A DNA stretch of 64,000 bases. Origin: an uncultured Candidatus Saccharibacteria bacterium. Its GTDB lineage: Bacteria; Patescibacteriota; Minisyncoccia; UBA6257; XYB1-36-10. Shown one piece after another: positions 5,432 to 63,392 of the stretch. The translations under genes and the position numbers were made by a program. The notes under the pieces are model-generated. The model saw only the letters and a program-made list of their open reading frames with translations. It was not told the origin of the DNA and ran no database searches. Each line of letters starts with the position of its first letter. The stretch's first letter is position 1. Where the stretch lies: contig CAYIDJ010000002.1 of the NCBI GenBank assembly GCA_964362215.1, forward strand, positions 911-64,910, read 5' to 3'.

Positions 5432-5536
5432 AGTAAAAGATAATTGTTTGTGAGACACGTGTATTTTCTGGCTGGAAAATCACTCTGATTCGCACCGCCG
5501 TGCTCCGCGCGGTCTCACAAACAATTATCTTTTACT
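5432..5536. repeat. long palindromic element, family B (perfect about 24-bp stems flanking conserved core CTCTGATTCGCACCGCCGTGCTCCGCGCGGTC)
   Basis: aaaagataattgtttgtgagac ... gtctcacaaacaattatctttt is perfectly self-complementary. The loop is nearly identical to the copy at 42665-42776. Confidence 0.7.
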
Positions 5537-5606
5537 GTACACTTGGCTCTGGCGAATGTTTTTGTCGATTGGATTGTGCCGAGGGGAAAGAAATTATATT
5601 TAAGAT

Positions 5607-5656
5607 AGCCTGCCTAAATTTTTACATGAGTAAAAAATTAGGCAGGCTTTAATTTT
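5607..5656 (+). terminator. hairpin terminator-like element (AGCCTGCCTAAATTTTT...AAAATTAGGCAGGCTTT)
   Basis: 17-bp stem followed by T-rich tract. Same GCCYGCC..GGCRGGC hairpin type as at 22835, 35080 and 58190. Confidence 0.4.
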
Positions 5657-16203: not shown

Positions 16204-16347
16204 ATGCGGCTCATAATATACTCTCGCTACCGTCCATCTCCCCAGCGAGGAGATGGACTACGCCTCGCCCTCGCTCGTCCCGACTAAAGTCGGGACACCG
16301 TGCCTGCTCGGGCTCGGATGCGCGCTCGAGTATATTATGAGCCGCAT
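16204..16347. repeat. long palindromic element, family C (core CTACCGTCCATCTCCCCAGCGAGGAGATGGACTACGCCTCG)
   Basis: Perfect 20-bp outer stem atgcggctcataatatactc / gagtatattatgagccgcat. Conserved core shared with 63102-63257. Confidence 0.7.
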
Positions 16348-22585: not shown

Positions 22586-22878
22586 GTGATATTCTCCCCA
22601 TTACCATCGGCTCCGCTATTCGCTTAAAGCGAGTAATATTCACTCCCCTCTAATTTGGCTTATAAAACGGCTGGTTCCCGTTCCTCCCAAGGGGATTTTC
22701 CGACCAGCCGTTTTATAAAAGCCAAATTCTTCGTTGCGTTCATTTATCGCTAATTAAGCTCATAGAAGTCGCCAATGGTAATAGGGAGAATAATTTACCC
22801 TTTTTATTTGGAGAGGGGGTTGGACTTAAGGTAGCCCGCCAAAATTTTTGCTTGCGCAAAAACTTAGGCGGGCTTTTG
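22586..22878. repeat. composite long palindromic element, family D plus shared 3' module and GCCCGCC hairpin
   Basis: attctccccattaccat...atggtaatagggagaat outer inverted repeat. Inner inverted repeat ttggcttataaaacggctggt/accagccgttttataaaagccaa. 3' end GGGAGAGGGGGTTGGACTTAAGGTAGCCCGCC-hairpin-TTTT. Confidence 0.7.
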
Positions 22879-22880
22879 TT

Positions 22881-22918
22881 TTATCCACTTATAATACATA
22901 TGTATTATAAGTGGATAT
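22881..22918. repeat. perfect palindrome TTATCCACTTATAATACATATGTATTATAAGTGGATAA (DnaA-box-like half-sites)
   Basis: 38-bp palindrome. Half-site TTATCCACT is one mismatch from the DnaA box TTATCCACA. Related sites at 37771, 46274 and 26081. Confidence 0.6.
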
Positions 22919-23120
22919 AATTAAAGAAATAGCCCCGAGGTGGGTCGGGGCTAATGATGTTTATGTGGATTAATAAAAAAAAGGAAAAGAAGGGAAATTA
23001 GAAGGAACAGATAGAAGATAATAAAGGCATCAGAGGTGCGGAGCATATTTTTTTCCTTTCTTGAATGAGAGCTGATTAAATTATACCGAAAACTTGGCAG
23101 AGATGCTATAATTAAAAAAT

Positions 23121-24247: not shown

Positions 24248-24778
24248 TCATTGAGCAGCGGAAATTTCTTCTTTTTCAAGAATCGCTGCTATTTTCTTAA
24301 TACAGGCATAGGCCTTGGGAGAGTGGATGCTGGTAAAGCAAAAGATGTTTTTATATTCTTCCACGGTTGAGGCGAATTCCATGGCCTTCTCCAAGGCCTT
24401 TCTTTCCACCTCGCTGCCGCCTGGAGCTTTCCGGCAGATACCCAGACACTCTTTCACGGTTGAGGCGAATTCCATGGCCTTCTCCAAGGCCTTTTTTTTC
24501 ATCTCGCTGCCGCCTGGAGCTTTCTGGCAGATATCCAGACACTCTTCCACGGTTGAGGCGAATTCCATGGCCTTCTCCAAGGCCTTTTTTTCCACCTCGC
24601 TGCCGCCTGGAGCTTTCCGGCAGATACCCAGACACTCTTCCACGGTTGAGGCGGAGAGAAGTTTCTTCATTATGTCGGTTTCCTCCGGTAATGGCACATC
24701 GAGGGCTGAACAAACTTGGTCTCTTTTGTCTTGACCAAGAATCAGGCACAACCTATCAACTAACACTGAATTGTCCAT
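24248..24778 (-). CDS. hypothetical protein with four 31-aa tandem repeats (ALEKAMEFASTVEECLGICRKAPGGSEVEKK)
   Basis: Minus-strand ORF with GAAGGGAG Shine-Dalgarno sequence and TTGACA-17-ATATAT promoter upstream. Plus-strand ORFs through the same repeats are judged frame artefacts. Confidence 0.55.
   Translation of the reverse strand: MDNSVLVDRLCLILGQDKRDQVCSALDVPLPEETDIMKKLLSASTVEECLGICRKAPGGSEVEKKALEKAMEFASTVEECLDICQKAPGGSEMKKKALEKAMEFASTVKECLGICRKAPGGSEVERKALEKAMEFASTVEEYKNIFCFTSIHSPKAYACIKKIAAILEKEEISAAQ
24365..24690. repeat. 93-bp tandem repeat, about 3.5 units (coding)
   Basis: ggttgaggcgaattccatggcc recurs at 24365, 24458, 24551 and 24644. Confidence 0.8.
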
Positions 24779-24835
24779 AACAGAACTCCCTTCACTTTTT
24801 TGGGTTTTAATTAACACACCTTCAGGGTGTGACGC

Positions 24836-24911: not shown

Positions 24912-25955
24912 ATGGAAATTGTTTTAATTGTGGCGGTGGTGGCGCTGGTGGGGGTGGTGGGGTGGTTAGGGTGGGAGGTAAGAAAAGGGCAGGCGAGGCC
25001 GGAGGAGAAGAAAGATGACACTTCGCTTATTTTGTTGCAGAAGCAGATGGAGGGAATGACGCACGCGCTGGATGAGCGGATGCGGAACTCGGCGGAGGCG
25101 GTGGAGAGACAATTTAAGAGCAGTTTGGGAATTGTGCGGGAGGTGACGGAGAAGCTGACAAAACTGGACGAGACCAACCGCCAAGTAGTGGGGTTTGCCG
25201 ACCAGTTGAAAAGTTTTGAAAATATTTTGAAAAATCCGAAACAGAGGGGAATTTTGGGCGAGTATTTTCTGGAGGCGGTGCTAAAAAATGTGCTGCCGCC
25301 AAACGCCTATCAGTTGCAGTACAAGTTCGCGGACGGGGAAATTGTGGACGCGGCGATTTTCGTGAAAGACAAGATTATTCCAGTGGACTCAAAATTTTCA
25401 CTGGAAAATTACAATCGGATTGTGGAAGAAGACGAGCCGGGGAGGCGGGAGGAGCTGGAGAAAGTTTTTAAGATGGATTTGAAGAAGCGAATTGATGAGA
25501 CGTCAAAATATATCCGGCCGAAAGAGAACACGACTGATTTTGCCTTTATGTTTATACCGGCGGAGGGGATTTATTATGATTTGTTAGTAAACCAGGTGGG
25601 GGCGATAAAAGCGAATACGCGGGACTTGATTGAGTACGCCTTTAAGGAAAAGCACGTGATTATAATTTCGCCGACGACTTTCCACGCGTATCTGCAGACA
25701 ATTTTGCAGGGGTTGCGGGGAATGGAGATTGAGAAGTCGGCGCAGGAGATAAGGAAGCGGGTGGAGGATTTGGGTCGGCATATTGGGAGCTATGAGGAAT
25801 ATTTTAAGAAGGTGGGGAATAATTTGGCGACGACGGTTAATTCTTACAACAGCGCTTACAAGGAGTTGGGGAAGATTGATAAGGACGTTTTGAAAATAAG
25901 CGGGCAGTCGGCGGGAGTGGAGCCGGAGATGCTGGAGAGGCCGAGGGAGGAGTAG
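24912..25955 (+). CDS. rmuC: DNA recombination protein RmuC
   Basis: N-terminal transmembrane helix plus long coiled coil. C-terminal RmuC-type region (FMFIPAEGIYYDL...IISPTTFHAYLQTILQG). Confidence 0.75.
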   Translation: MEIVLIVAVVALVGVVGWLGWEVRKGQARPEEKKDDTSLILLQKQMEGMTHALDERMRNSAEAVERQFKSSLGIVREVTEKLTKLDETNRQVVGFADQLKSFENILKNPKQRGILGEYFLEAVLKNVLPPNAYQLQYKFADGEIVDAAIFVKDKIIPVDSKFSLENYNRIVEEDEPGRREELEKVFKMDLKKRIDETSKYIRPKENTTDFAFMFIPAEGIYYDLLVNQVGAIKANTRDLIEYAFKEKHVIIISPTTFHAYLQTILQGLRGMEIEKSAQEIRKRVEDLGRHIGSYEEYFKKVGNNLATTVNSYNSAYKELGKIDKDVLKISGQSAGVEPEMLERPREE

Positions 25956-34821: not shown

Positions 34822-35128
34822 TATATATTCCCCCACCACCATTCGCTCCGCTACTCGCTCAAAGCGAATAATATTCGCTCCGTTCTAATTTGGCTTATAA
34901 AATGACTGGTTCCCATTCCTCCCTCGATAGAACCTCGGGATTTTCCGACCAGTCATATTTATAGAAGCCAAATTGTTCATTCCGCTCATTTATCGCTTAT
35001 TAAGCTCGTAGAAGTCGCGAATAATGATGGGGAGAATATAAACTATTCTTCCTGGGGGAGAGGTTGGATGAGAATGTAGCCCGCCAAAATTTTTGCTTAC
35101 GCAAAAACTTAGGCGGGCTTTTGTTTAT
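34822..35128. repeat. composite long palindromic element, family D plus 3' module plus GCCCGCC hairpin
   Basis: Same block order as 22586-22878, with divergent outer stems. Ends GGGAGAGGTTGGATGAGAATGTAGCCCGCCAAAATTTTTGCTTACGCAAAAACTTAGGCGGGCTTTT. Confidence 0.7.
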
Positions 35129-37770: not shown

Positions 37771-37856
37771 TTATCCACTTATAAAACATATGTTTTATAA
37801 GTGGATAGGTTGGGTGTGGTTACTATAATTTTTCCACGGTCGTTGGAAAATTATAG
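37771..37856. repeat. pair of perfect palindromes immediately after mpg stop: TTATCCACTTATAAAACATATGTTTTATAAGTGGATA and CTATAATTTTTCCACGGTCGTTGGAAAATTATAG
   Basis: Both recur after the rnhA stop at 46231-46309, with the spacer between them conserved in layout. Confidence 0.65.
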
Positions 37857-37900
37857 TTGATATAAAAATTGTAGAATTTTTAGTAAATAAAAAAAGGGTG

Positions 37901-39066: not shown

Positions 39067-39345
39067 TAGAAAGGTATGGTAATTGCTTTTTCCGCTATAT
39101 TTTGCCGGGTACGAACTGGCTCGCTCCAGCGGCGAGCCGTTCTCTGATCTCGCCGGCCGGAAGAACCAAGCCCGGCCGGCTCTGATAGCCCCTCTAAAAT
39201 ATAGCGGGAAAAGCAATAAAAAAATAAAACAATACTTTTTTAGAGGGAGAGTTAGGTAATATAGCGTCCGCCCAAGGCGGATTTTATTTTTATAAAAAAA
39301 CCGCTCAGGGCGAGCGGCGGAAAAAGGGTGGATTTGTCAAATGGT

Positions 39346-42552: not shown

Positions 42553-42640
42553 AATACCAAGTTAATTTTATATTAAGTGGCGGGGTAGAGCAATGGAGGA
42601 AGTGGATAGGTTGGTTTGTGTATAATTATGAATAACTTGC

Positions 42641-42780
42641 CAACATACTCTCGCTTAGCGGCAATCAGAAGCCCAGTTTCCTGTTTGTTGGACACGGATA
42701 TTTTTTTGCTAAAAAATTCCTCTGACTCGCACCGCCGTGCTCCGCGCGGTCCAACAAACAGGAAACTGGGCTTCTCTGGC
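42641..42780. repeat. long palindromic element, family B (perfect about 27-bp stems flanking conserved core CTCTGACTCGCACCGCCGTGCTCCGCGCGGTC), with family-C-like 5' lead CAACATACTCTCGCT
   Basis: cagaagcccagtttcctgtttgttggac ... gtccaacaaacaggaaactgggcttctc. Core nearly identical to 5461-5512. Confidence 0.7.
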
Positions 42781-42825: not shown

Positions 42826-42880
42826 AAGAGGAAGAGTTGGATGATAATGTAGCCTGCTTGCCGGCAGGCCTTGATTTGTA
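42826..42880. repeat. shared 3' module (GGAAGAGTTGGATGATAATGTAGCCTGC + hairpin)
   Basis: Same GAGnTTGGAT..GTAGCC block as the other composite repeats. GCCTGCTTGCCGGCAGGCC hairpin. Confidence 0.55.
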
Positions 42881-42896
42881 GCAGTACAAACAAAGC

Positions 42897-44021
42897 GTGT
42901 ATAATGGTTTAAAAATGGCAATACAATTTATTTCTAAAGCCAGCCGGAGGGAACTTACCGGGACGGCCATAGTACGGCTGGATTTTAATGACGCGGATGG
43001 GTGGCGGATAGAGCAGTCGGCGCGGACGATAAAGTTTCTGATTAAAAAAGCGGATAAGCTGGTTATTTTGGGGCACCGAGGCCGGCCGAAGCCGTCAATG
43101 CATATAACGCGGAACAATAAAGAGTTCTCGCTTAAGGGAGAGGAAGCGCGTCTGGCGAAAATTGTCGGGCGGTCGGTGGAATTTATCGCTCACAGCCGGA
43201 TATCGGAGGCGGCCAACGAGATACGGAACGCGGCGGTGGGCGCGGTTTTTCTGTTGGAGAATGTGCGGTTTTTAGACGGCGAGGAGGAGAATAACACGGA
43301 GTTGGCGCGGCACCTGGCGTCGCTGGGAGATTATTATGTAAATGAAGCGTTTGCCAACTGCCACCGGGCGCACGCTTCCATGGTGGGGATTACCAAGTTT
43401 GCGCCGAGTTATGGCGGGCTGCGACTGGAAGAGGAAATAGTTAATTTGTCGCGAGTGATGAAGAAGCCGAGACGTCCGCTGGTGATGATATTCGGCGGAG
43501 CGAAGGCGGACTCAAAACTGCCGGTGATTGCGCATTTTCGCAGGCGGGCGGATGCTTTTTTGGTGGGAGGAGCGCTGGGAAATACTTTGCTTTATTTAGA
43601 AGGTGTGAACATAGGGGAGTCAGTGGCGGAGAGAAAAATTGACGGCATGATATTGAAAGTGGCGCGGATGAAAAATATAAAGGGACTGGTTGATGCGCGG
43701 AGACGAGGCGGAAAGATCTTAGATATCGGACCGAAGACAGAGAAGATATTTATGGGGGAGATAAAGCGGGCGAAGACAATTGTTTGGAACGGGCCGTTGG
43801 GAATGATTGAGAAGCGCGGGTTTGAGAGCGGAACGAAGGTGGTCGCTCGGGCGGTGGCGAGAACGAAGGCGTTTTCGGTGGTGGGAGGTGGGGAGACGGT
43901 CAACTTTATCCGCAAGTTGAAACTAGAGAAAAAGATTAGTTTTCTTTCCACCGGCGGGGGAGCGATGCTTGATTTTTTGGCGGGGAAGAAATTGCCGGGG
44001 ATAGAGGCGTTGAGTAAATAA
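42897..44021 (+). CDS. pgk: phosphoglycerate kinase
   Basis: RLDFN..., NCHRAHASMVG, FGGAKADSKL motifs. Start possibly at internal ATG 42915. Confidence 0.85.
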   Translation: MYNGLKMAIQFISKASRRELTGTAIVRLDFNDADGWRIEQSARTIKFLIKKADKLVILGHRGRPKPSMHITRNNKEFSLKGEEARLAKIVGRSVEFIAHSRISEAANEIRNAAVGAVFLLENVRFLDGEEENNTELARHLASLGDYYVNEAFANCHRAHASMVGITKFAPSYGGLRLEEEIVNLSRVMKKPRRPLVMIFGGAKADSKLPVIAHFRRRADAFLVGGALGNTLLYLEGVNIGESVAERKIDGMILKVARMKNIKGLVDARRRGGKILDIGPKTEKIFMGEIKRAKTIVWNGPLGMIEKRGFESGTKVVARAVARTKAFSVVGGGETVNFIRKLKLEKKISFLSTGGGAMLDFLAGKKLPGIEALSK

Positions 44022-44478: not shown

Positions 44479-44580
44479 TATTCTTCTCCTACTTCGATTT
44501 TTAATGTGCAGAGTAAAGCTGATTAGTTTATAATTCAGTTTTTGACTGATGTCAATACTTTTGGACTTACACTACTCGTT

Positions 44581-44618
44581 AAACTATTCTAATGTTCTCA
44601 AGAACATTAGAATAGTTT
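44581..44618. promoter_or_regulatory. 38-bp perfect palindrome AAACTATTCTAATGTTCTCAAGAACATTAGAATAGTTT (operator-like)
   Basis: Lies in the divergent promoter region. Core AATGTTCTYRAGAACRTT also occurs at 51817-51834. Confidence 0.5.
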
Positions 44619-44669
44619 AGAGGTGTTAGTAAGTGGTTTTTTTAAGGGAGACAGTTTAGAATTAGATGA

Positions 44670-45539: not shown

Positions 45540-45576
45540 AAGTCCATAAAATTATACAAAGAAGAGAAATTAAAAT

Positions 45577-45651
45577 ATGAAAAAACAATTATTTAATTTA
45601 AACAAGATTGTTATTTATACGGACGGGGGAGCGAGAGGGAATCCCGGACCG
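45577..45651 (+). pseudogene. truncated duplicate of the rnhA 5' end (first 25 codons, about 80% identical to 45764-45838)
   Basis: MKKQLFNLNKIVIYTDGGARGNPGP versus MNNKLFGLNKVIIYTDGGARGNPGL of the full gene. The frame then runs into unrelated sequence and stops. Confidence 0.6.
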
Positions 45652-45755
45652 TCGTCCCTCGGTAAACTCGGGACTCCCACGAACCCAGCGGTTCGTGGAC
45701 TCCGCCACGGGGAAACTCATGTTTCCCCGACCCCTTTCCTCGGTCCAGGATTTTT
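45652..45755 (+). other. about 105-nt GC-rich structured insert between the rnhA fragment and the intact rnhA (stable hairpins CCACGAAC/GTTCGTGG and CGGGGAAAC/GTTTCCCCG bracketed by GGACCG/CGGTCC)
   Basis: GC-rich in an AT-rich intergenic context. Could not be folded as a tRNA. Confidence 0.4.
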
Positions 45756-45763
45756 TAATAACT

Positions 45764-46189
45764 ATGAATAATAAATTGTTTGGCCTAAATAAGGTGATAA
45801 TTTATACCGATGGAGGGGCGAGAGGAAATCCTGGACTGGCGGCGATGGCGGTAATAGTTAACGGGAAGAAGTATGGCGAATATATCGGGAAGGCGACTAA
45901 TAATGAAGCCGAGTACAGAGCGGTTATTTTGGGACTGACGAAAGCGCGACAGATGTTAGGGAAGACGAAGGCGAGAGAAGCGGAAATTGAGGTGCGAATG
46001 GATAGTGAGCTTATAGAGAGGCAGTTGAATGGAGAATATCGGGTGAAAGAGGAGAATCTGAAGGGATTATATGTGGACGCGCACAACCTATGTTTTGAGT
46101 TTAAAAAAGTTATTTTTACGCACGTGCCGCGGGAGAAAAACAGGGAAGCAGACCGGCTGGTGAATGAGGTGCTGAACAGTCAAAAGTGA
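45764..46189 (+). CDS. rnhA: ribonuclease HI (type 1 RNase H)
   Basis: IIYTDGGARGNPG..., EAEYRAVILGL, ...HVPREKNREADRLVNE catalytic DEDD-family blocks. Confidence 0.85.
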   Translation: MNNKLFGLNKVIIYTDGGARGNPGLAAMAVIVNGKKYGEYIGKATNNEAEYRAVILGLTKARQMLGKTKAREAEIEVRMDSELIERQLNGEYRVKEENLKGLYVDAHNLCFEFKKVIFTHVPREKNREADRLVNEVLNSQK

Positions 46190-46230
46190 AAAGTCATAAA
46201 GTCCATTAAATTTTGTTCTTTTAACACCAA

Positions 46231-46309
46231 CTACAATTTTTCCACGGCCGTGGAAAAATTGTAGTAACTATACCTATCCACTTTCAACACATATGAACTG
46301 AAAGTGGAT
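46231..46309. repeat. pair of palindromes after rnhA stop: CTACAATTTTTCCACGGCCGTGGAAAAATTGTAG and TATCCACTTTCAACACATATGAACTGAAAGTGGATA
   Basis: Same two-palindrome arrangement as 37771-37856. Confidence 0.65.
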
Positions 46310-47565: not shown

Positions 47566-48063
47566 TAGCCAGTTGTAAGACAGCTACTGGATGCCTTAAA
47601 AAGTATCTAGAGGAAAGTCCGGACACCAGCCAGTGCTATGCGCTGGCTATGGATAGTCGCTAACGGCGACCGGGGGAAACTCCAGGGAAAGTGCAACAGA
47701 AAATATACCGCCGAACACTCAATTTATTGAGTGTTCGGTAAGGTTGAAATCGTGCGGTAAGAGCGCACGCGTTCTGGCCGTGAGGTTAGAATGTGGCAAA
47801 CCCTATCCGGTGCAAGGTCGTATTCCAGTGCTTCGCATTGGGAATATCAATAACTAAGAAACAATAGTACAAAAACATTCTCTTTATAGTTTTAATTTTG
47901 TGGTTTGATGTTTGTTTGGAATTTGTATCTTGGAATTTGGTGCTTCCAATGCGGAGCATTGGTCTGTGCCGCTTGACTCCGGCGCGCAAGCGCCGAAGCA
48001 GATAAATTGCTGTCATTCGCCGATGAGGCGAAACAGAATCCGGCTTATAAGCAACTGGCTAAA
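47566..48063 (+). ncRNA. rnpB: RNase P RNA (bacterial type, with unusual about 90-nt AT-rich insertion near 47845-47935)
   Basis: P4 strands GAGGAAAGTCCGGAC and ACAGAATCCGGCTTAT. Conserved GGTAAGGTTGAAATCGTGCGGTAAGAGCGCAC block. P1 pairing TAGCCAGTTG/CAACTGGCTA and P2 GACAGC/GCTGTC. Ends are approximate. Confidence 0.85.
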
Positions 48064-63085: not shown

Positions 63086-63101
63086 GTTAGGAGGATAGAT
63101 A

Positions 63102-63257
63102 GCATCTCGTCAACATACTCTCCCTACCGTCCATTCCCCCAGCGAGGGAATGGACTACGCCTCGGTCTCGCTCCCGAGCACTCAAATTAAGAAATACGAG
63201 TGTTCGGACCATGCCCACTCGACCTCGGATGCGCGCTCAAGTATATTGGCGAGATGC
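63102..63257. repeat. long palindromic element, family C (second copy)
   Basis: catctcgtcaacatactctccctaccgtccattcccccagcgagggaatggactacgcctcg ... ctcggatgcgcgctcaagtatattggcgagatg. Outer stems imperfect (16/19). Confidence 0.65.
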
Positions 63258-63275
63258 TTTTTTGATTTACCTATG

Positions 63276-63340
63276 AACCTTGAGGTAAGAGTTAGACATG
63301 GTGTAACCCGCCTATGTTTTACTAAGTAAAACATAGGCGG
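63276..63340. repeat. shared 3' module (GAGGTAAGAGTTAGACATGGTGTAACCCGCC + hairpin + TTTATT)
   Basis: ACCCGCCTATGTTTTACTAAGTAAAACATAGGCGGGT hairpin. Same block order as the other composite repeats. Confidence 0.55.
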
Positions 63341-63392
63341 GTCTTTATTATTAAAATTTGTGCGGCAGGGAAGATTGGGTGATAATAAATAA

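Follow-up and report, generated by a model that had tools for sequence, protein, structure and literature searches.

A short dispersed hairpin repeat with a conserved apical domain and covarying stems in groundwater Paceibacteria

Two hairpins in one stretch of bacterial chromosome carry closely similar loops on very different stems, and in both of them the two arms are fully complementary. This raises the question of whether the stem belongs to the repeated unit or is taken up from the DNA in which the loop has come to lie. A first-pass annotation of the window (the whole stretch of 64,000 nucleotides that was analysed, with positions counted from its first letter) had located both hairpins correctly, and had explained them either by a fold-back or template-switch mobile element that copies its flanking target DNA in inverted orientation or by homogenisation of the hairpins at the DNA level. 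The arms of the first copy (W1) and the second copy (W2) are 25 nt and 27 nt long, respectively, and each pair of arms encloses exactly 55 nt. In this study, the two copies were divided into the following parts.

5432-5456, + strand: W1, 5' arm of the basal helix P1 (25 nt), 100% complementary to 5512-5536.
5459-5483, + strand: W1, hairpin P2 of 10 bp with a bulged T at 5462 and the loop GGCT; four P2 pairs covary and are almost always Watson-Crick.
5484-5491, + strand: W1, junction strand TCTGATTC, conserved in 16 of 16 copies save one Y position.
5492-5503, + strand: W1, hairpin P3 (GCAC/GTGC) with the loop CGCC; the pairing is swapped to GCTC/GAGC in copies a and b of contig L064.
5504-5511, + strand: W1, junction strand TCCGCGCG, conserved and lying inside the 20-mer used for retrieval.
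5512-5536, + strand: W1, 3' arm of P1, defined by its complementarity to 5432-5456.
42667-42693, + strand: W2, 5' arm of P1 (27 nt, stem type S1), 100% complementary to 42749-42775.
42696-42720, + strand: W2, hairpin P2 with the loop TGCT, placed by the covariation of P2.
42721-42728, + strand: W2, junction strand TCTGACTC, conserved across copies.
42729-42740, + strand: W2, hairpin P3, placed by its pairing in the alignment.
42741-42748, + strand: W2, junction strand TCCGCGCG, placed by its conservation in the alignment.
42749-42775, + strand: W2, 3' arm of P1, defined by its complementarity to 42667-42693.

W1 and W2 are the two longest inverted repeats of the 64-kb window, and a 30-nt core occurs exactly twice in it, with 0.00 occurrences expected from shuffled sequences. 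The description of the loops as near-identical and about 55 nt long held for their length, and they can be aligned without an indel, but 9 of the 55 positions differ. The stems, which had been called entirely different, turned out to be the same in 14 of 27 pairs when compared in register, with 12 pairs changed on both sides and 1 changed on one side. Identical sequences were found in independent assemblies (L001 is identical to the window, and L048 from JGI is identical to L057 from ENA), which shows that the hairpins are not an assembly artefact. The window itself contains ordinary chromosomal genes, including glycolysis genes, groEL/ES, aminoacyl-tRNA synthetases, mraZ/mraW and RNase P RNA, and no transposase, HUH/Y1 enzyme, integrase, reverse transcriptase or Nop-domain protein was found within its 64 kb. 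The two hairpins are genuine copies of a previously undescribed repeat of ~109 nt (about 105-110 nt), which is referred to here as family B.

Further copies were sought in public metagenomes with an exact 20-mer from the loop. This search returned 55 matches, of which 43 were chance matches in G+C-rich genomes, and yielded 11 further true loci, one of them also present as a truncated duplicate (L054). A covariance model was built on 13 copies and applied to the window and to L064, a contig reached via ruvB synteny. It detected no additional diverged copies within the window and three more copies on L064, none of which contains the exact 20-mer. Together with W1 and W2, the 14 further copies from related metagenome contigs gave 16 aligned copies from at least 13 loci. 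The exact 20-mer supplied 11 of the 14 extra copies, which biases the set to intact loops, and only ~3 genomes are sampled. Alignment columns 64-83 are fixed by the search pattern, and all three copies found by synteny differ there; for example, copy c of L064 has one C>T change in the TCCGCGCG junction strand. The invariance of TCCGCGCG is therefore partly an effect of ascertainment, because this strand lies inside the retrieval 20-mer of those 11 copies.

Searches of wider collections returned nothing of the kind. Among the GTDB representative genomes, a 23-mer core gave 0 matches and a degenerate pattern gave 1 chance match in a Polyangiaceae genome; the repeat had 0 matches in IMG/VR and no BLAST match in plasmid and phage collections, and the core sequence had no match in the literature. 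At a permissive threshold, Rfam 15 returned only miRNA-like hairpins that scored far below threshold, such as mir-3914 (26 bits, compared with a gathering threshold of 97). The flanking protein is also present in assemblies of the 0.1-um filtrate of the Hainich aquifer, and pgk and ruvB have their nearest named relatives among the Paceibacteria/Parcubacteria of the candidate phyla radiation (CPR). Family B is restricted to a small, narrow clade of groundwater Paceibacteria.

The 16 copies align nearly gap-free and support a three-way junction made up of P1, P2 and P3. The basal helix P1 is kept within 22-27 bp; 24 of its 27 pairs are changed on both sides among the 16 copies, and no part of the arms is invariant except GAC/GTC at their inner end. 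The hairpin P2 spans 10 bp, is rich in A/T and contains a bulged T; 99.4% of its cells are paired. In P3, an A-T to T-A swap in copies a and b of L064 keeps the pairing, and as this swap is a single evolutionary event, the covariation support for P3 is weak. Over the whole fold, 29 of 41 pairs show changes on both sides in the 16 copies, and none of 500 shuffles reached the observed values. The proportion of paired cells was 95.4%, compared with 72.5% in the shuffles and 41-51% in controls with slid partners. The fold is thus conserved across copies, and the same covariation is expected from a hairpin of single-stranded DNA. Apart from its one Y position, the motif CTCTGAYTCGC, which is TCTGATTC extended by one C on its left and GC on its right, is kept in all 16 copies; its last base alone lies within the search 20-mer.

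The mismatches in the stem were also counted. Among 432 stem cells, Watson-Crick, G-T, A-C and other combinations accounted for 396, 7, 14 and 15, respectively. G-T thus makes up 1.6% of stem cells and is not commoner than A-C on the + strand, a comparison made on small counts in which one recurrent column holds between about a third and half of the A-C cases. The A-C mismatch at pair 17 recurs across stem types (5 of 13 copies, about a third). A fully perfect stem was present in 6 of the 16 copies and ordinary mismatches in the other 10, so perfect complementarity, which had been taken from W1 and W2 as a property of the elements, does not extend to the family.

Individual stem types recur at different loci. 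The S1 stem of W2, AGAAGCCnnnnTTCCTrTTTnnTGGAC, was found in six gene contexts, namely at pgk (W2 and the orthologous site in L048/L057), dnaJ (L010), efp/truB (L016), ruvB (L019), recG (L036) and upstream of ruvB (L064a). S3, a second type, is present at two places in L064 and as variants in L018 and L021, and an arm of the type in L005 was found again as a remnant in L018. Distinct stem types are also alike in register, with 36.5% identity compared with 26.9 +/- 1.6% after shuffling. Each sub-type also carries with it approximately 10-15 nt of the sequence on the left of its stem; for example, the left flank GTTGGCrGTGATA is common to L010 and L019, and the left flank TGTCTTTC is common to L018 and L064c. 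Six copies (W1, L006, L013, L018, L056 and L064c) have private stems that are perfect or nearly so. The recurrence of S1 and S3, the mismatches and the in-register likeness indicate that the element includes its stem and that the stem is not a captured flank. The whole hairpin, including its stem, is the repeated unit, and the stem has diverged by paired changes; closely similar loops on very different complementary stems are explicable without capture of the target.

The flanks of the copies were compared with one another as well. Direct matches from flank to flank were at chance level in 15 of the 16 copies, the exception being a 14-mer that lies inside both flanking genes, and no target-site duplication of fixed length was found in the 16 copies. 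Three candidates were rejected: a likeness of the left arm of W1 to the region upstream of DeoC in L063 (local score 23, null 21.6 +/- 2), a 32-nt direct repeat between the left boundary of W1 and the start of DeoC (72% identity, not above chance in the flank test), and a repeat resembling a target-site duplication around L064c, which was at chance level.

Family B is not the only hairpin family of the window. The CTCTGAYTCGC motif recurs as CTCTGATCTCGC in an element that otherwise looks unrelated:

39082-39217, + strand: element of a probable sister family (family D), with a 22-bp outer stem, an inner hairpin, CTCTGATCTCGC and a second hairpin, the same architecture as family B.

A second member of family D, with a different and perfect 23-bp stem, lies downstream of ruvB in L065. 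Further siblings are family A, a set of 200-nt nested palindromes, and an insert at rnhA, and modules common to these families and family B include a hairpin with a CCAGCG loop and the junction CTCTGAY(C)TCGC. The rnhA insert is 105 nt long, lies at the 5' end of the gene and is flanked by an 82-nt target duplication; its outer stem pairs target coding sequence (AATCCCGGACCG) with an inverted copy of it at the far end of the insert. This structure suggests that fold-back copying of a target may occur in this genome. As estimated from the coordinates of the elements, long-stem hairpin families with conserved apical motifs occupy ~2% of the window.

The occupancy of family B sites changes between close relatives. 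In L063, in which the W1-flanking protein has 76% amino acid identity, the same upstream gene is followed after 6 nt by an inverted downstream gene, with no element and no arm-like sequence between them. This comparison of an empty with a filled site, proposed by the first-pass annotation, gave a clean absence and none of the arm-like sequence that copying from the flank would have used. The ruvB-LTD spacer carries S1 in L019, S3 in L064, a family-D element in L065 (a 75% relative) and nothing in the more distant L066. The RuvB proteins of L019 and L064 are 91% identical, yet the two contigs have different sub-types at this site and immediate flanks that cannot be aligned; upstream of ruvB there is a family B copy in L064 and a family-A element in L019. 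The copies are also mosaic. The apical parts of L064a and L064b are identical at 62 of 62 positions and their stems are different, whereas L064b and L064c have the stem in common and differ in the loop. Besides one full copy, L018 contains the remnant of another and a partial duplicate of 90 nt. Copies have been gained, lost, replaced and recombined over ~10-25% protein divergence. No two copies are identical over their full length, so no recent transposition event has been caught. Within-genome concerted evolution of the stems was considered and set aside, as column-based distances showed no clear clustering by genome.

One pair of copies is orthologous. W2 and L048 occupy the same pyrG/pgk site, and their flanks are 79-81% identical. 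The loop is kept at 53 of 55 positions, and the two differences form one compensated pair; if the loop evolved like its ~80%-identical flanks, the probability of such conservation would be ~5e-4. The two arms differ at 6 and 4 positions, respectively, with 4 pairs changed on both sides, including one swap from C-G to G-C, and the stem is perfect in W2 where that of L048 has 3 mismatches. The retention of the loop points to purifying selection at the level of the host or of the element, and fits a functional RNA equally well.

All copies also have the same orientation with respect to the composition of the chromosome. The G-C skew of the window is +0.24 to +0.39 throughout and is positive even over minus-strand genes, and when the related loci are turned to match the window, the + strand of the element has a positive G-C skew over every gene there, whichever strand the gene is on. 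The polarity relative to this strand disparity is the same in 16 of 16 copies, and each element family of the window is rich in C on the strand that is itself G-rich. Most genes lie on the same strand, so the polarity could reflect transcription and not replication; the element of L018, which is antisense to rpsJ-rplC yet has the same skew polarity, is the sole discordant case for the direction of transcription. Comparable whole-strand G/C disparity has been reported in Microgenomates (CPR) genomes, where it possibly results from unidirectional replication (PMC7143001).

Several known systems resemble family B in part. Correia elements (CREE/NEMIS) and other bacterial MITEs are described as dispersed, intergenic, non-coding repeats of ~100-150 bp with inverted-repeat ends of ~26 bp and a long hairpin, often co-transcribed with their neighbours, polymorphic between strains, and bound or cut by RNase III in Neisseria (PMC2649163, PMC10969869). 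Like MITEs, family B is short, non-coding, multi-copy and dispersed, with polymorphism for presence and absence. In MITEs, however, the terminal inverted repeats are the conserved part, since the transposase recognises them, and the target duplication is fixed (TA in Correia elements), whereas in family B the arms vary and covary, the interior is conserved, there is neither a detectable target duplication nor a known parent insertion sequence, and the 64-kb window contains no insertion sequence. With no conserved terminal repeats and no target duplication, family B does not belong to the MITEs. REP/BIME elements and REPINs, which RAYT (Y1/HUH) transposases mobilise, are likewise abundant, modular intergenic repeats with mixed motifs that form hairpins, are thought to act as single-stranded DNA and lie at sites resembling 3' UTRs. 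The stem of a REP is conserved and carries a 5' GTAG, and the loop of a REPIN is variable; family B shows the opposite pattern, which excludes it from the REPs, and no RAYT gene was found within the 64-kb window. BOX elements of pneumococcus and ERIC/IRU elements of enterobacteria are imperfect modular palindromes of ~100-130 nt in intergenic regions and 3' UTRs, with uncertain mobility and possible effects at the RNA level (PMC3049150, PMC2229807), but their sequences and hosts are different and they do not combine a conserved three-way-junction apex with sub-types of covarying stems.

Studies have shown that quasi-palindrome correction turns imperfect inverted repeats into perfect ones, with several apparently compensatory changes in a single event (PMC8794818, PMC7202029). 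This agrees with the perfect stems, with the small number of G-T pairs and with the double changes that cluster between W2 and L048, but it is a mutational process and leaves the conserved apex, the dispersal and the polarity unexplained. The TIGR systems of phages and CPR bacteria, which supply guide RNAs to Tas/Nop proteins, have variable and consistently palindromic stems with short conserved loop motifs and occur in parasitic bacteria; their loops hold two variable spacers of 8-12 nt flanked by box C/D, and the units form tandem arrays next to a tas gene (PMC12045711). A TIGR unit was rejected on the ground that the family B loop is conserved (its variable positions are paired in P2), the copies are dispersed and there is no Nop-domain protein in the window. 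Integron attC sites (R''/R' core sites RYYYAAC ... GTTRRRY, with extrahelical bases, in cassette arrays with intI nearby) were rejected as well, since the arms end in AGAAG.../...CTTCT or in private sequence, the stems are perfect or have random mismatches, the neighbours are housekeeping genes and the window has no integrase. An inverton (invertible promoter switch) does not agree with the single orientation of 16 of 16 copies relative to the strand disparity, or with an enclosed segment of only 55 bp. A -35/-10-like pair is present inside the element. The scan for intrinsic terminators called neither copy, and the hairpins have a 55-nt loop and no T run behind them. By eye, hammerhead and other ribozymes were rejected too, as CTGAYTC is not CUGAUGA and there is no conserved GAAA.

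We tentatively favour, with slightly less than even confidence, the reading of family B as a non-autonomous mobile or recombining hairpin DNA repeat that acts as a folded single strand. The apical domain would be kept through sequence-specific recognition by a putative factor and may be homogenised by recombination between copies. The basal stem would need only to pair, so that its sequence could drift while selection for folding would keep the inverted repeat exact. Template switching within the hairpin at replication probably helps to maintain this exactness, as it could perfect a quasi-palindrome in one step, and it is an established source of perfect stems (PMC8794818, PMC7202029). We favour a DNA-level constraint over one on RNA alone because G-T is scarce, because G-T is about as frequent as A-C, and because the polarity follows the strand disparity. 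DNA-level homogenisation, the second proposal of the first-pass annotation, agrees with some of the data, namely the scarcity of G-T, the paired changes between W2 and L048 and the perfect W2 stem opposite three mismatches, and template switching would fit this comparison. Against the mobile-DNA reading stand the lack of a mobilising enzyme in the 64-kb window and the lack of a target-site duplication.

A serious though less likely rival is that family B works as a structured RNA of the host, which would be transcribed from the G-rich strand and would either act in cis within 3' UTRs and intergenic transcripts or form a set of sibling small RNAs. The perfect stem of 25-27 bp would then be a double-stranded substrate or barrier for RNase III or exonucleases, and the apical three-way junction would bind a protein or pair with targets via its C-rich junction strand; targets complementary to this strand were sought in the window, and none was found beyond the elements themselves. 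The strong covariation in P1, P2 and P3, the constrained stem length of 22-27 bp and a loop conserved well beyond its flanks at the orthologous site are all consistent with such an RNA, as is a T-G pair in the putative P3, which is a mismatch on the opposite strand. The positions of the elements agree in part. W1, which begins 5 nt past a stop codon and has a terminator-like hairpin with a long stem (5607-5648) downstream of it, is probably transcribed. A promoter-like motif (GTGTATAAT) stands before W2 and a terminator-like site (42852-42869) after it, and the sibling families lie mostly just downstream of + strand genes. However, the orthologue L048/L057 does not share the promoter-like and terminator-like sites seen around W2. 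Divergent genes flank five copies, which lie upstream of both short-leader promoters, convergent genes flank two, and one is antisense to a ribosomal-protein operon. A G-U frequency of 1.6% of stem cells, with no excess over A-C, would be unusual under selection for RNA pairing alone. The replacement of the element at the same site in close relatives by another sub-type, by another family or by nothing also speaks against a host function, as does the lack of an Rfam match.

A broader and doubtful proposal takes family B and its siblings together as an undescribed, modular and strand-polar hairpin system of CPR bacteria. Template switching at replication, without a transposase, would then both spread and reshape the elements; fold-back copying would renew their arms, and target duplications of 50-90 nt would border some of the insertions. 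Alternatively, the system would consist of new lineage-specific structured RNAs that bind protein.

Still less probable, in our view, is a chromosomal site that the host keeps as cis-acting single-stranded DNA for replication or DNA uptake, such as a priming, loading or pause site on the template strand when it is exposed, and that would not be selfish. The uniform polarity relative to the strand disparity, independent of gene orientation, would suit such a site, as would the DNA-like pairing with few G-T, the conservation of the apical domain at the orthologous site and the whole-strand disparity of other CPR genomes (PMC7143001). However, there is no precedent for one with a structured 55-nt loop and variable stems, the spacing of copies is irregular (three within 2 kb in L064, two in the 64-kb window), and copies are gained and lost between close relatives.

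Fold-back capture, in which the mobile unit would be the loop with a few inner pairs and the adjacent target would be copied in inverted orientation to give a private, perfect outer stem, is very unlikely: the six private stems and the rnhA insert, built from target coding sequence and its inverted copy, are what it would produce, but stem types recur at unrelated loci, the stems of W1 and W2 are homologous in register (14 of 27 pairs), the A-C at pair 17 crosses stem types, nothing resembling an arm is present at the empty site in L063 and the 16 copies show no significant flank duplication. The first-pass annotation had itself stated that the same stem in further copies, or ordinary mismatches, would count against this model. 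The same stem was found for S1, for S3 and for the L005-type remnant, and the mismatches were found in the 36 stem cells that are not Watson-Crick.

CPR genomes are tiny and streamlined, yet several families of long-stem hairpins are present here. Family B is the clearest case, with unusually strong covariation in a three-way junction, a pattern of conservation opposite to that of MITEs and REPs, and strict polarity amid an extreme G/C disparity. If the repeat acts at the DNA level, it would offer a natural system for the exactness of inverted repeats, by template switching or by selection for single-stranded DNA folding, and for spread without a recognisable transposase. If it acts at the RNA level, it would be a new class of structured RNA in an uncultured phylum. 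Either way, the covariance model and the set of loci give a means of addressing this question with groundwater metagenomes and metatranscriptomes that already exist.

Besides the approximately 109-nt hairpin repeat family B, two further families of palindromic elements were found in the window and on related metagenome contigs, together with an insert in the RNase H gene (rnhA), and these share a hairpin with a CCAGCG loop:
Window 16204-16347 and 63101-63259, L010 approximately 2407-2564 (L010 reverse strand) and L019 1-125: family A elements.
Window 39082-39217 and L065 6073-6212: family D elements.
Window 16242, 39126, 45685 and 63139, and also L010, L019 and L065: CCAGCG-loop hairpins.

The family A elements are palindromes of about 145-160 nt with copy-specific outer arms, and their members share an inner AAYATACTCTCGCTACC as well as a hairpin that covaries and has CCAGCGA as its loop. 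The family D elements have private stems of 22-23 bp and contain a CCAGCG-loop hairpin, the junction CTCTGATCTCGC that family B also has, and a further hairpin with the loop GAACCAAGC. The family D copy of L065 was located at the ruvB-downstream site where two other genomes hold B copies. In the CCAGCG-loop hairpin, the apical loop is conserved and the stem is variable and covarying. The occurrence of this hairpin in family A, family D and the rnhA insert suggests a common binding module.

Families A and B were also found together. Family-A-like left-arm sequence precedes the B hairpin in L016 and L036, and partly (42642-42658) at W2, the window B copy at the pyrG/pgk site, while A-like right-arm sequence is also present downstream of the B hairpin in L016 and L036. 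This indicates that in these two loci the B hairpin is nested inside A-like arms.

At the 5' end of the RNase H gene, 82 nt that include the start codon were present twice (45573-45654 and 45760-45841, 73% identity), and the two copies are separated by a C-rich insert of 105 nt that contains three hairpins. The outer stem of this insert consists of the target coding sequence (AATCCCGGACCG) and an inverted copy of it at the far end of the insert. The insert with its long target duplication looks like a fold-back or template-switch insertion.

Duplicated or stem-enclosed segments were also found elsewhere. In L018 (2600-2915), a 90-nt direct duplication brackets a 136-nt segment with a remnant of another B copy carrying an L005-type arm, all within the 650-nt rpsJ/rplC spacer. 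The duplicated sequence extends from the 3' part of the loop of B across the right arm into the flank, of which it includes 60 nt. In L064 (1750-1905), a perfect 21-bp stem (AAAAAACTTGGATCTGTGGGC / GCCCACAGATCCAAGTTTTTT) surrounds a G-rich segment of about 100 nt, which sits between B copies a and b of this contig and had no match in Rfam. A unit of approximately 90 nt is repeated in tandem about three and a half times at window 24340-24650, inside a minus-strand ORF (24248-24817) that had no Pfam match.

Other recurring features of the window were as follows:
22590-22790 and 34830-35030, just 3' of plus-strand genes: two copies of a nested palindrome of about 200 nt.
22873-22926, 37772-37807, 37822-37857, 44580-44619 and 46230-46265: short palindromes.
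5582-5655, 22810-22885, 35055-35125, 42835-42885 and 63280-63350: purine-rich motif with a terminator-like hairpin.

The nested palindrome has outer arms TATTCTCCCCATTACCAT.../...ATGGTAATAGGGAGAATA and a CCTCCC loop on its inner hairpin, and a related copy was present in L016. The short palindromes (17-27 nt, perfect or near-perfect, with centres of 0-2 nt) fall into recurring types, such as TATCCACTTATAA... and ACTAyAATTTTTCCACG..., and look like operators. L058, a distant relative, has a related ATTCTAATGTTCT palindrome upstream of its pgk gene.

The purine-rich motif, approximately GAGGnnAGAGTTGGAynnnAAkGTAGCCyGCC, leads into a long-stem hairpin resembling an intrinsic terminator, 40-80 nt past each palindromic element. 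In the W2 orthologue (L048/L057), the terminator-like hairpin was deleted and the purine-rich motif was retained. A GTGTATAAT motif, conserved in L048, lies within 42897-42920, about 10 nt ahead of the pgk ATG (42915), which suggests mRNAs that are leaderless or have a very short leader. The motif occurs again at 42618-42630, about 37 nt upstream of W2.

The strand G/C disparity was extreme, with a G-C skew of +0.24 to +0.39 in each 4-kb bin of window 1-64000, and the skew was still positive in minus-strand genes. To our knowledge, whole-strand disparity of this kind has not been reported for Paceibacteria. The related contigs (L005-L064) showed the same disparity as the window. Similar whole-strand disparity has been described in Microgenomates genomes (PMC7143001). 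The minus-strand ORF with the tandem repeats was the sole gene-sized stretch of negative skew.

The window also contains a class A RNase P RNA (47568-48063; 214 bits), which is 496 nt long versus 367 nt for the model and has an A/T-rich insertion of roughly 100 nt at about 47838-47940, unrelated to family B. An RmuC-family gene was found at 24912-25955. In E. coli, a role in restricting inversions between short inverted repeats has been attributed to RmuC, and this gene may be of relevance given the palindrome-rich genome.
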